Shown here: in pieces, positions 65-6,093 of the stretch
Layout: the number at the start of each line of letters is the position of its first letter
Position numbering within the stretch: position 1 is the first letter of the stretch
Sequence record: GQ149088
Reading direction: 5' to 3' (one strand)
DNA length: 6,094 nucleotides
From: Escherichia phage St-1
Program-made: the position numbers and the translations under genes
Notes under the pieces: model-generated
Database searches by the model: none
The model's input: only the letters and a program-made list of their open reading frames with translations
Told to the model about the DNA's origin: nothing

Positions 65-349
65 ATGAAGCCAGCTCACCGCCTTTATCATTCTGTGCTT
101 GGTTCTTGGTTGTTTAAGTGCCCTGTTTATATCCGTTATGAGTACCTTCATCATGGTCGTCTTATCAAGGTTCGCGCCGTTCGTGACCTTTCCCCGCGTC
201 AGCAGTTGATTGCCAATCCTAAAAATTGTTTGACGTCGTTATTGCCGAGATTGACGTTACTCACCTTTCTGTCACTTGGTATGATTTTGAGGCTGAAGAG
301 TATGCCGAGTGTGATTCCGGCACTATGGAACTTCTTCTTTCTCAGGTGA
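65..349 (+). CDS. Hypothetical basic protein, spacer ORF 1; only the N-terminal part (about 65-226) looks coding
   Basis: ATG at 65 preceded by AGGAG (52-56) with 8-nt spacing. From 65 to about 226 roughly 54% of codons end in T (manual count; CGT/CTT/GTT-rich like the known genes). The ORF track starts this frame at 23, but codons 23-64 lack that bias. After about 227 the bias in this frame falls to about 22% although the frame stays open to TGA 347-349. Product begins MKPAHRLYHSVLGSWLFKCPVYIRYEYLHHGRLIKVRAVRDL. No homolog recalled. Confidence 0.35.
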   Translation: MKPAHRLYHSVLGSWLFKCPVYIRYEYLHHGRLIKVRAVRDLSPRQQLIANPKNCLTSLLPRLTLLTFLSLGMILRLKSMPSVIPALWNFFFLR

Positions 350-432
350 ATTCTGGTGAGGTTATTCGTTCTTCTGAAGATCTGTTTGTTGATGTTGATG
401 ATATGGATTGGCTTTATGAGATTGCGGAGTAA
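226..432 (+). CDS. Hypothetical highly acidic protein, spacer ORF 2; start uncertain (TTG 226, internal ATG 325, or reached by frameshift from ORF 1)
   Basis: Frame 1 is open from 226 to TAA 430-432 with about 59% T-ending codons (manual count). Product is Asp/Glu-rich, ending SSEDLFVDVDDMDWLYEIAE. No convincing Shine-Dalgarno before TTG 226 or ATG 325. An in-frame TAA at 220-222 lies immediately upstream. Confidence 0.35.
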   Translation: MFDVVIAEIDVTHLSVTWYDFEAEEYAECDSGTMELLLSQVNSGEVIRSSEDLFVDVDDMDWLYEIAE

Positions 433-3065: not shown

Positions 3066-4361
3066 ATGTCTAATGTACAAACTTCCGCTGAACGTGAAAT
3101 TGTTGACCTTTCTCATCTTGCCTTTGACTGTGGCATGATTGGTCGTTTGAAAACTGTTTCATGGACTCCTGTTATTGCTGGCGATTCCTTTGAGCTTGAT
3201 GCTGTTGGCGCTTTGCGTCTTTCTCCTCTGCGTCGTGGTTTAGCTATTGACTCTAAGGTTGATTTTTTCACTTTCTATATTCCGCATCGCCATGTTTATG
3301 GTGACCAGTGGATTCAATTTATGCGTGATGGTGTTGATGCCGCACCACTCCCTTCCGTTACTACTACTCAGTATCCGGATGACGCTGGTTATGTTGGTAC
3401 TATTGTTCCTAAGAGCAACCGTATTCCTAAGTTTTTGCATCAGTCTTATCTGAATATTTATAATAACTATTTCCGTGCGCCGTGGATGCCTGAGCGTACT
3501 GAAGCTAATCCTTCAAATTTAGACCGTGATGATTCTCGCTATGGATTCCGTTGCTGCCATCTTAAAACTATTTGGTCTGCTCCTCTTCCTCCGGAAACTA
3601 AGCTCGCTGAGCAAATGGGCATTGAAAGCAATTCCATTGATATTATGGGTTTGCAGGCCGCTTATGCGCAGCTTCATACTGAGCAGGAGCGTACTTATTT
3701 CATGCAGCGTTATCGTGATGTTATCTCCAGCTTTGGCGGTTCAACCTCCTATGATGCCGATAACCGACCGTTGCTTGTTATGCACACCGATTTCTGGGCT
3801 TCCGGTTACGACGTTGACGGTACCGACCAATCTTCCCTCGGACAGTTTTCGGGTCGAGTCCAACAGACGTTTAAACACTCAGTGCCTCGATTCTTCGTGC
3901 CGGAGCATGGTGTCATGATGACTTTGATGCTGGTTCGCTTCCCGCCTATCAGTCCTTTGGAGCATCATTATCTTGTTGGTCGTAATAATTTGACTTATAC
4001 CGACCTTGCGGGTGACCCGGCTTTGATTGGTAATTTGCCGCCACGTGAGATTTCTTATCAGGATCTTTTCCGTGATGGTCGTCCGGGCATTAAGATTAAG
4101 GTTGCCGAGTCTATCTGGTATCGTACTCATCCGGATTATGTTAACTACAAGTATCAGTTACTTGAAGGTTTTCCGTTCCTTGATGATGCGCCCGGTACGA
4201 CTAGTGGTGATGACCTTCAGAAGGCTATTCTCATTGACCATAATGACTATAATGCCTGTTTCCAGTCTCAGCAGTTGCTTCAGTGGAATAATCAGGCTCG
4301 TTATAATGTCAATGTTTATCGTCATATTCCTACTGTTCGTGATTCTATTATGACCTCTTGA
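3066..4361 (+). CDS. F: Major capsid protein F
   Basis: 431 aa, alignable along its whole length to phiX174 F by recall (MSNVQTSAER, ALRLSPLRRGLAIDS, YGFRCCHLK, SIDIMGLQAAYA, QFSGRVQQT.KHSVPRFFVPEHG, TRDSIMTS). AAGGA lies 7 nt upstream. Confidence 0.97.
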   Translation: MSNVQTSAEREIVDLSHLAFDCGMIGRLKTVSWTPVIAGDSFELDAVGALRLSPLRRGLAIDSKVDFFTFYIPHRHVYGDQWIQFMRDGVDAAPLPSVTTTQYPDDAGYVGTIVPKSNRIPKFLHQSYLNIYNNYFRAPWMPERTEANPSNLDRDDSRYGFRCCHLKTIWSAPLPPETKLAEQMGIESNSIDIMGLQAAYAQLHTEQERTYFMQRYRDVISSFGGSTSYDADNRPLLVMHTDFWASGYDVDGTDQSSLGQFSGRVQQTFKHSVPRFFVPEHGVMMTLMLVRFPPISPLEHHYLVGRNNLTYTDLAGDPALIGNLPPREISYQDLFRDGRPGIKIKVAESIWYRTHPDYVNYKYQLLEGFPFLDDAPGTTSGDDLQKAILIDHNDYNACFQSQQLLQWNNQARYNVNVYRHIPTVRDSIMTS

Positions 4362-4394: not shown

Positions 4395-4958
4395 ATGTAT
4401 CAAAATTTTGTTACTAAGCACGATACCGCCATTCAGACATCCCGTTTTTCTGTTACTGGTAGTATCACTCCTGTTGCGCCTACTGGTAATATCCCTGTTA
4501 TCAATGCTGGTAATATTACTGCTGAGCATGCTGTTGTTAATCTTTATGCTAATTTGACCGCTGGCACTTCTTCTGATGGTTCTTTTATTGTTGCTATGAA
4601 GGTTGACACCTCTCCTTCTGACCCTAACTGCGTTATCTCTGCTGGTGTTAACCTTAGCTTTGCTGGTACCTCATACCCGATTGTTGGTATTGTTCGTTTT
4701 GAGTCTGCTTTTGACCAGCCCACTTCTATTGCTGGTAGTCAGATTGAGCATTACCCAATTGAAATGTCTGTAGGTTCTGGTGGTGTTTGTTCTGCTCGCG
4801 ATTGCGCTACTGTTGATATTCATCCTCGCACTTTTGGCAATAATGTTTTTGTTGGTGTGATTTGTTCTAGTGCTAAATGGACCTCCGGTCGTGTGCTTGG
4901 TACCATCGCTACGACTCAGGTTATTCGTGAGTATCAGGTCCTTCAGCCGCTTAAATAA
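4395..4958 (+). CDS. G: Major spike protein G
   Basis: 187 aa with phiX174 G-like motifs (RFESA/RFESS, DC.T.D..PRT.GNNV.VG, VI.E...LQPLK C-terminus). AAGGA lies 6 nt upstream. Confidence 0.95.
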
Positions 4959-5041
4959 AAGGCCGCCGCACTCCCGGTTATGTGTCTGCCCAGTGTAGGG
5001 CGGACCGAGCCGTACGGAGATACCCGATAAACTAGGAACGT

Positions 5042-5068
5042 GGAAGGCGTTAGCCGCCTTCCCTCCTG
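5042..5068 (+). promoter_or_regulatory. Candidate complementary (-) strand origin element: hairpin plus adjacent CTG primase start site
   Basis: GGAAGGCG (5042-5049) pairs with CGCCTTCC (5055-5062), a perfect 8-bp stem with loop TTAGC, followed by CTG at 5066-5068, within a 136-nt GC-rich G-H intergenic region. DnaG-dependent origins of G4-type phages are hairpins with a CTG initiation site. Confidence 0.4.
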
Positions 5069-5094
5069 CTAAGCCCAAAAAAGGAGCTTACAAT

Positions 5095-6093
5095 ATGCTT
5101 GGAAGTATCATTGGAGGTATTGGCTCATCGCTGCTCGGAGGACTTGCTTCCGGCGGTATCTCCAGTCTCCTTAATAAAATGTTTAGTAAAATGCCAGAAC
5201 ACGCCGCCTCTTCTGCTGGCCTTACTAATGGTCAAGGAACTATTGGTATGGATACTGACGCTGGCATTCAGTCTGCTATTCAGGGCTCTAATGTTCCTCC
5301 TGCTGGTCAATTGCCTGCCTCTAATACCTCTGGTGTTATGGCTGATGCTGGTAATATGATTCGTAATGCTGGCAGAGCTTTGCTTGACGGTACGATTCAG
5401 GCCGGTTCTGACAAGGTTAAAGAGGCTCTTATTGATAAGTTGGTTGGAGGTAATGATGCTAAAGACCGAGGAAAGGCAACCCGTGATTACTTGGCAGCGG
5501 CTTTCCCTGAGCTCAACCCATGGGAACGTGCTGGAGCTGATGCTTCCACTGCCGGGTTAGAGTCTTCCGCTCAGAATCAACAAAAAGAGATGCTTAAAAT
5601 GCAACTGGATAACCAGAAGGATATTGCCAAGATGCAGATGAATAACAATTTGCAGATTGCTGGCATTCAGTCCGCTACATCTCGCCAGAATACGAAGGAT
5701 TCTGTTTATGCCCAGAATGAGATGCTTCAGTATAATCAACGTGAGTCGCAGGCACGCGTTGCGTCCATCCTCGCCAACACTGACCTTACGACTAAGCAGG
5801 CCACCCATGAAATTATGAGGATGGCTCTTACCCGCGCTCAGGAGACTGGTCAGCATTTGACTAACTCTCAGATTATGGCTTTGGAGAAAAAGGTTTATGC
5901 AGAAATTGGCAAAATTCATCAAGATACTCAAAATTCTCGCTATGGTAGCTCTCAAGTTACTGCCGCAGCGAAAGACGTTACGAATATGATTACTGACGCC
6001 TCTTCAGGCTTTGCTGATTGGGCCTCTCAGCAGTGGAATTCATTCTTTAAGGATGGTAAGTCTGATGGTATTCCTCTCAATACCAGAAAATAA
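5095..6093 (+). CDS. H: Minor spike / DNA pilot protein H
   Basis: 332 aa with a Gly-rich N-terminus (GGIGSSLLGG) and long stretches matching phiX174 H by recall (AGI.SAIQGSNVP, TRDYLAAAFPELN.WERAGADAS, LDNQK.IA.MQ, IAGIQSATSRQNTKD.VYAQNEML, NSRYGSS). AGGAG lies 8 nt upstream. Stop TAA 6091-6093. Confidence 0.95.
   Translation: MLGSIIGGIGSSLLGGLASGGISSLLNKMFSKMPEHAASSAGLTNGQGTIGMDTDAGIQSAIQGSNVPPAGQLPASNTSGVMADAGNMIRNAGRALLDGTIQAGSDKVKEALIDKLVGGNDAKDRGKATRDYLAAAFPELNPWERAGADASTAGLESSAQNQQKEMLKMQLDNQKDIAKMQMNNNLQIAGIQSATSRQNTKDSVYAQNEMLQYNQRESQARVASILANTDLTTKQATHEIMRMALTRAQETGQHLTNSQIMALEKKVYAEIGKIHQDTQNSRYGSSQVTAAAKDVTNMITDASSGFADWASQQWNSFFKDGKSDGIPLNTRK

Follow-up and report, generated by a model that had tools for sequence, protein, structure and literature searches.

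The window analysed here is the whole 6094-base genome of Escherichia phage St-1 (ST-1; GQ149088). The four sites reported as mutated in experimental lines of ST-1 (807, 1387, 3869, and 5540; Table 3 of PMC3324380) each have the expected ancestral base here, and three are in the expected codon (Val in A, Thr210 in A, and Asp149 in H); a search of a phage collection did not return ST-1 itself. It is that of a complete phiX174-type microvirus, in which genes A, B, K, C, D, E, J, F, G, and H are all on the plus strand, as are all of the features described below. Gene A is at 758–2242, gene F at 3066–4361, gene G at 4395–4958, and gene H at 5095–6093. Three small open reading frames, here called ORF1, ORF2, and ORF3, lie between the end of gene H and the start of gene A, and the order H-ORF1-ORF2-ORF3-A is kept on every contig examined. 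The intergenic region between genes G and H (4959–5094), where ST-1, phiK, and alpha3 have their primase-dependent origin for the complementary strand, has a high GC content and evident self-complementarity, as at ggccgccgcactcccgg ... ggaaggcgttagccgccttcc. Neither this region nor any other part of the genome matched an RNA family in Rfam.

The most acidic of the long reading frames of the genome is found at 226–432. Frame 1 is open here from position 223 to the TAA stop at 430–432, the first start-type codon is the TTG at 226, and the product is MFDVVIAEIDVTHLSVTWYDFEAEEYAECDSGTMELLLSQVNSGEVIRSSEDLFVDVDDMDWLYEIAE. A TAA stop (220–222) and an AAA codon (223–225) directly precede this TTG. The product has 68 residues, including 19 Asp or Glu (28%), a single Lys or Arg, and 8 aromatics, with a pI of 4.05. 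This bears out the sequence-only reading, which had described a product dominated by Asp and Glu with interspersed aromatics, and the translation is exactly as that reading gave it. The length of the ORF is by itself unremarkable, as the ORF list of the genome has 60 entries of 30 codons or more; its D+E fraction is the highest among the stop-to-stop ORFs of at least 60 codons in all six frames. Judged by comparison with related phages, 226–432 is protein-coding sequence. The pN/pS in this frame is 0.40–0.43 versus approximately 1.0 in the two other frames, and the variable alignment columns number 29, 31, and 52 at codon positions 1, 2, and 3, respectively. No Shine-Dalgarno-like sequence was found upstream of the TTG at 226 or of an internal ATG at 325.

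The related phages used for comparison were alpha3, NC3, Lilleven, WA45, WA13, ID21, ID62, NC35, NC28, phiK, ID32, NC29, and a Microviridae genome from dog faeces, making a total of 13 alpha3-like phages (genus Alphatrevirus). The first 760 bases of the window, from the end of H to the start of A, have 81–93% DNA identity to these. All 13 carry an intact ORF of 120–122 codons that runs from the equivalent of an ATG at position 65 to the equivalent of the stop at 430–432. A Shine-Dalgarno sequence, AGGAG (52–56), is 8 nt 5' of this ATG; it is kept in the relatives, and the alpha3 record M25640 has a ribosome_binding_site feature at the corresponding place. In a DNA alignment of 15 sequences, the ST-1 genome has a one-base deletion relative to all of the relatives at about 229–230, where their TG[C/T]TTTGAC is replaced by TGTTTGAC, and this deletion moves the rest of ORF1 from frame 2 into frame 1. 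Since the extra base is present in all 13 relatives, the 226–432 stretch forms codons 56–122 of the ORF starting at ATG 65.

It is therefore very probable that the acidic frame is the C-terminal part of a conserved 122-codon gene, ORF1 (ATG 65 to 430–432), which has been split by a one-base deletion. Codons 1–55 (65–229, frame 2) encode a basic N-terminal domain, MKPAHRLYHSVLGSWLFKCPVYIRYEYLHHGRLIKVRAVRDLSPRQQLIANPKNC, with 10 Lys or Arg, 2 Asp or Glu, and a pN/pS of 0.10, while bases 229–429 are the codons of the acidic C-terminal domain. Beyond 229, frame 2 continues for 39 out-of-frame hydrophobic codons to a stop at 347–349. The proposal of a small acidic protein at 226–432 thus holds for the sequence, the composition, and the coding nature of the stretch. 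It does not hold for the boundaries of the gene, as there is no Shine-Dalgarno sequence and the codons are internal in all of the relatives.

When the repaired ORF1 protein was searched against 5.8 billion protein clusters, 19 clusters (226 member sequences) were found at 72–97% identity, with E values down to 6e-75. The members are nearly all 120–122 aa long and are mostly located on contigs of approximately 6 kb. The ST-1 copy is like them in having homology over both domains and in being placed right after gene H and a hairpin, followed by the 29-aa ORF, the 58-aa ORF, and gene A. It lacks their uninterrupted 120–122 codons from the conserved ATG, and is either disrupted or mis-sequenced. 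ORF1 is marked as a single 369-nt feature in Lilleven, as a 122-aa hypothetical protein, and in MG945254. The Lilleven protein (QBZ71502.1 in MK629527) belongs to the cluster whose representative, P0001, has 96% identity with the repaired ORF1 protein. It is the product of the same gene, sharing the position between H and the 29- and 58-aa ORFs, the start, the Shine-Dalgarno sequence, and the stop. It differs in that the reading frame in ST-1 is broken at about 229/230. The orthologous ORFs are unannotated in alpha3, WA13, WA45, phiK, NC3, NC28, NC29, NC35, ID21, ID32, and ID62. An exhaustive HMM search of 1.84 billion representatives matched only three clusters, all of them alpha3-like; there are therefore no distant relatives from which a function could be borrowed.

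Selection on ORF1 is uneven along its length. The pN/pS is 0.26 overall, with 0.10 in the N half and 0.40–0.43 in the C half, and values of 1.0–5 in the other frames; that of gene A in the same genomes, taken as the benchmark for an essential gene, is 0.07. Within the C half there is a peak of approximately 0.8 at codons 81–103, with conserved segments on either side (codons 56–64 and 105–119). The exhaustive profile search identified one distant relative, of 129 aa (P0020), with 35% identity overall and 24% in the C half, encoded at 820–1209 of an alpha3-like contig (L016, Logan SRR20337160), and here too the C half is acidic. The identity of this contig to the ST-1 genome is 35% for ORF1 versus 85% for H, 73% for ORF2, 97% for ORF3, and 80% for A. 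Divergence in the region thus has its hot spot in ORF1, which is far less similar than its neighbours. This comparison of sequences points either to replacement of ORF1 by recombination or to a strong acceleration of its evolution. Two further relatives (P0017 and P0018, at 3501–3965 of L029 and 689–1153 of L030) are 154 aa long and carry a 34-residue acidic N-terminal extension, MKPLTSSEIAVINSAICDLDDSIEEVESLVASVSS..., before the conserved domain; the genomes encoding them are alpha3-like and about 6.2–6.3 kb.

ORF2 (436–525) starts 3 nt past the ORF1 stop and encodes a 29-aa peptide, METVIGKFIALAVVALMLYGISCLIRRFP, with GGAG (426–429) located 6 nt 5' of its ATG. A hydrophobic span followed by a basic tail makes this a putative membrane peptide. 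ORF2 is present in all of the relatives, and the exact peptide is found on metagenomic contigs of approximately 6 kb; it is annotated only in Lilleven, as a hypothetical protein. Because the ORF is short, its selection signal is weak and ambiguous, and in the profile libraries only sub-threshold PHROGs matches were found for it, the best having an E value of 0.023. ORF3 (522–698) encodes a 58-aa protein from a GTG start that overlaps the ORF2 stop (GTGA), with GGAGG at 512–516 upstream, and has a pN/pS of 0.10–0.11. It had no match in Pfam, PHROGs, PADLOC, or NCBIfam, and bears a weak resemblance to a winged-helix DNA-binding domain. Paralogy of ORF1 and ORF3 was suspected from a shared C-P...R...xPR pattern and was rejected, the hhalign probability being 1%. 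In the alpha3 record M25640, ribosome-binding sites are marked at the equivalents of 52–56, 426–429, and 512–517, which indicates that the original sequencers had noticed the starts of all three ORFs.

Just 3' of gene H, at 25–60, is a terminator-like hairpin with a T run, identified by a terminator scan and with a predicted RNA folding energy of -21.1 kcal/mol (z -4.9). The 3' arm of the hairpin holds the ORF1 Shine-Dalgarno sequence. Its sequence is conserved in the 13 relatives with no compensatory change in any pair, so that this conservation is evidence neither for nor against the structure. A σ70-like promoter, with TTGACA and TATATT separated by 18 nt (11 of 12 matches in a promoter scan), is at 695–724 and delimits the accessory module on its 3' side. 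It is the sole such site in a scan of 1–800 and presumably drives gene A. A second, GC-rich hairpin with a T run (725–754; -16.1 kcal/mol, z -2.9) follows this promoter and precedes the start of gene A (758). This terminator-like structure sits within the gene A leader, a few bases 5' of the start. Based on this arrangement, the cassette of ORF1, ORF2, and ORF3 between H and A, which lacks a promoter-like site of its own, would be transcribed only by read-through of the 25–60 hairpin, and translation of ORF1 may be held low because its Shine-Dalgarno sequence sits within that hairpin.

The ORF1 protein has a charge dipole. The C half (residues 56–122) carries the 19 acidic and single basic residues of the frame 1 product, giving it a charge of about -18, while the basic N half (residues 1–55) is at about +8, for a net charge of -10 over the whole protein. 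The dipole is kept in all homologues, including P0020, with 10–12 Lys or Arg in the N half, and 16–20 Asp or Glu and 1–5 Lys or Arg in the C half. The intact protein is predicted to be compact, mostly beta, and two-lobed. The AlphaFold2 model, made from a shallow alignment of 18 close relatives, has a mean pLDDT of 90.3 and a pTM of 0.82; its predicted N lobe has four strands and a short helix, and its predicted C lobe has a beta-beta-beta-alpha-beta-beta order. Superposition on the BFVD model of the Lilleven ortholog, which is independent, gives a TM of 0.97. Disorder with no conserved fold, named in the sequence-only reading as counting against the proposed anti-defence protein, is therefore not predicted, given the high pLDDT and the agreement with the BFVD model. 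A structure search of BFVD with ORF1 found only a marginal match to an uncharacterised protein of a Brevibacterium phage.

The phage and plasmid DNA mimics T7 Ocr, ArdA, and PBS2 Ugi are small accessory proteins in which dense Asp and Glu with interspersed aromatics are typical. ORF1 resembles them in its small size, in the comparable density of Asp and Glu (28%) with interspersed aromatics in its C-terminal domain, and in being an accessory gene. The C-terminal domain taken on its own has a net charge of -18, conserved across homologues; that of ORF1 as a whole is only -10. In the comparison of structures, similarity to the fold of a known mimic was not found. Nothing was found for ORF1 in Pfam, PHROGs, PADLOC, or NCBIfam, using both halves and the repaired full length, and a PDB sequence search with the ORF1 family profile gave only a chance match (E 0.68). 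Pfam, PHROGs, NCBIfam, and PDB sequence searches did not place ORF1 in the known mimic families (Ocr, ArdA, Ugi), and among the PADLOC defence-system profiles no family matched ORF1, ORF2, or ORF3 at E values up to 1. There are no EcoKI or EcoBI sites in the genome, where 0.6 and 1.6, respectively, would be expected. This absence is not significant, and avoidance of restriction sites was rejected as an argument, being uninformative either way. As a whole, the evidence speaks neither for nor against a DNA-mimic role for ORF1.

What is made from this locus in ST-1 depends on the nature of the one-base gap. It is highly unlikely that TTG 226 starts a separate acidic protein of 68 aa, or ATG 325 one of 35 aa, with a DNA-mimic function against restriction. 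The frame is open and strongly acidic, selection acts on the acidic domain at the protein level, and this part forms a lobe of its own (residues 57–120) in the model of the intact protein. Neither codon is preceded by a ribosome-binding sequence, however, no relative starts a protein at either point within its 122-codon ORF, the 68-aa product is absent from a collection of 15 billion proteins, and there is no match to a DNA mimic in fold or in sequence. The 94- and 108-aa products of the broken frames are likewise absent from this collection. Rescue of the full-length protein from the broken gene, whether by programmed -1 frameshifting or by slippage during transcription near 221–231, is more improbable still. 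The required shift is -1 and there is an A5 run (221–225) just 5' of the break, but the zero frame from 215 to 349 contains no X XXY YYZ heptamer, and a run of A5 or T3 is too short for efficient transcriptional slippage. With no canonical slippery heptamer present, and with ORF1 simply in frame in all of the relatives, none of which recodes here, programmed frameshifting at the break was set aside. An error in the deposited sequence has to be taken more seriously, although the chance of it appears to be somewhat below even; the phage would then encode an intact 122-aa protein, with no pseudogene. The gap sits in the short T run of TG[C/T]TTTGAC, the kind of place in which base-calling errors arise, and ORF1 is intact in the other 13 phages and in approximately 226 metagenomic sequences. 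The sole other broken ORF1 record among the relatives is the 1992 alpha3 sequence (X60322/M25640), with a comparable frame error elsewhere in ORF1 that is gone from the resequenced record, DQ085810.2. This error is seen at X60322 188–433 and in M25640, a sequence that is also distributed as NC_001330, therefore the RefSeq alpha3 record hides ORF1. Against an error in ST-1, the ancestor and evolved isolates of this phage are reported to have been sequenced in full and Table 3 of that study shows no change in the ORF1 region (PMC3324380). This suggests that the base is consistently absent and leans towards a real deletion, although a systematic artefact could give the same result. A loss-of-function mutation in an accessory gene over decades of laboratory passage would be equally plausible. 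An error would mean that ST-1 produces the complete 122-aa protein, and the case for dispensability made below would then fail. With a real break, a ribosome starting at ATG 65 would make the basic N-terminal domain of 55 residues followed by 39 residues read out of frame, and the acidic C-terminal domain, having no start signals of its own, would probably not be made in this genome.

Under the preferred reading of ORF1 as a single gene split by a real deletion, a viable phage carries it broken, and ORF1 would therefore be dispensable in laboratory hosts. The viability of ST-1 and the absence of a homologue from the phiX174-like and G4-like phages together suggest that it is an accessory gene. 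The K and A* proteins of the phiX174-type phages are not needed for laboratory plaque formation. ORF1 would be similar to them as a small Bullavirinae protein dispensable for laboratory plaques, judging from the viability of ST-1. These two are found in all three clades and are encoded within or overlapping essential genes. ORF1, by contrast, has a place of its own between H and A with no overlap, is limited to the alpha3-like clade, and shares no sequence with them. One possible role, though on balance a doubtful one, is in the phage's own life cycle, with ORF1, alongside ORF2 and ORF3, modulating for example replication, packaging, or superinfection exclusion instead of acting against host defence, and its acidic domain binding a basic phage protein such as J or A. 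The order and content of the cassette are conserved in all alpha3-like genomes, unlike those of variable cargo, the N-terminal domain and ORF3 are constrained like the essential gene A, and the ORF2 membrane peptide and the weak winged-helix likeness of ORF3 suggest a regulatory or exclusion module. Yet the phiX174-like and G4-like microviruses complete the same cycle without any homologue detectable by the exhaustive profile search, ST-1 is viable although its ORF1 is apparently broken, and nothing links the ORF1 protein to J or A. A role in host interaction, of which counter-defence or nucleic-acid mimicry would be one form, is put forward tentatively and is itself rather unlikely as matters stand. 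In such a protein the constrained basic domain would serve as a structural or anchoring core, and the fast-evolving acidic domain might bind a basic partner that itself binds nucleic acids and belongs to the host or a competing element, as a decoy or in a mimic-like manner. A constrained core joined to a lobe that changes rapidly yet is always acidic fits a protein with a partner outside the core machinery of the phage.

A more specific form of the host-interaction role is distinctly improbable on present evidence. ORF1 would here be a counter-defence or host-takeover protein of a fold not seen before, with its acidic domain decoying a DNA- or RNA-binding factor of the host, and the cassette between H and A would be a host-range module. 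ST-1 and phiK are phages of K-12, and E. coli B is a further host of alpha3. The phages phiX174 and G4 have a host range confined to E. coli C, a strain without restriction. These host ranges make a host-range module attractive, although they are circumstantial. If such a role is true, ORF1 would be the first counter-defence or host-takeover protein of this kind described in the Microviridae, which are ssDNA microviruses, and the H-A cassette would help to explain the growth of alpha3-like phages on hosts beyond E. coli C.

ORF1 is already on record, as the hypothetical protein of Lilleven and as one of the "putative genes" of the literature. In the literature searched, the three small ORFs between H and A appear only under this term, for which Rokyta et al. 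2006 is cited, and no functional study of ORF1, ORF2, or ORF3 was found. Only the canonical genes A–K are described for a new alpha3-like isolate in a paper of 2026. The completeness of the phiX174 annotation has been argued experimentally (PMC6883844). The phiX174-type phages have some of the best-annotated genomes, yet most records of the alpha3 clade leave the approximately 700 bases between H and A unannotated. Automatic annotation of the ST-1 genome will yield a chimeric 94- or 108-aa product, and perhaps a spurious 68-aa acidic ORF, and such calls should be read as a single disrupted gene. ST-1 is possibly a natural ORF1 knock-out, which would be useful for tracing the function of the gene. 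The stretch between H and A contains at least two genes that are constrained nearly as strongly as gene A (0.10 for the ORF1 N-terminal domain and 0.11 for ORF3, compared with 0.07 for A), together with a conserved putative membrane peptide. ORF1 itself, with a confidently predicted fold that has no known relative, would be a well-constrained accessory gene in a very well-studied group of phages.
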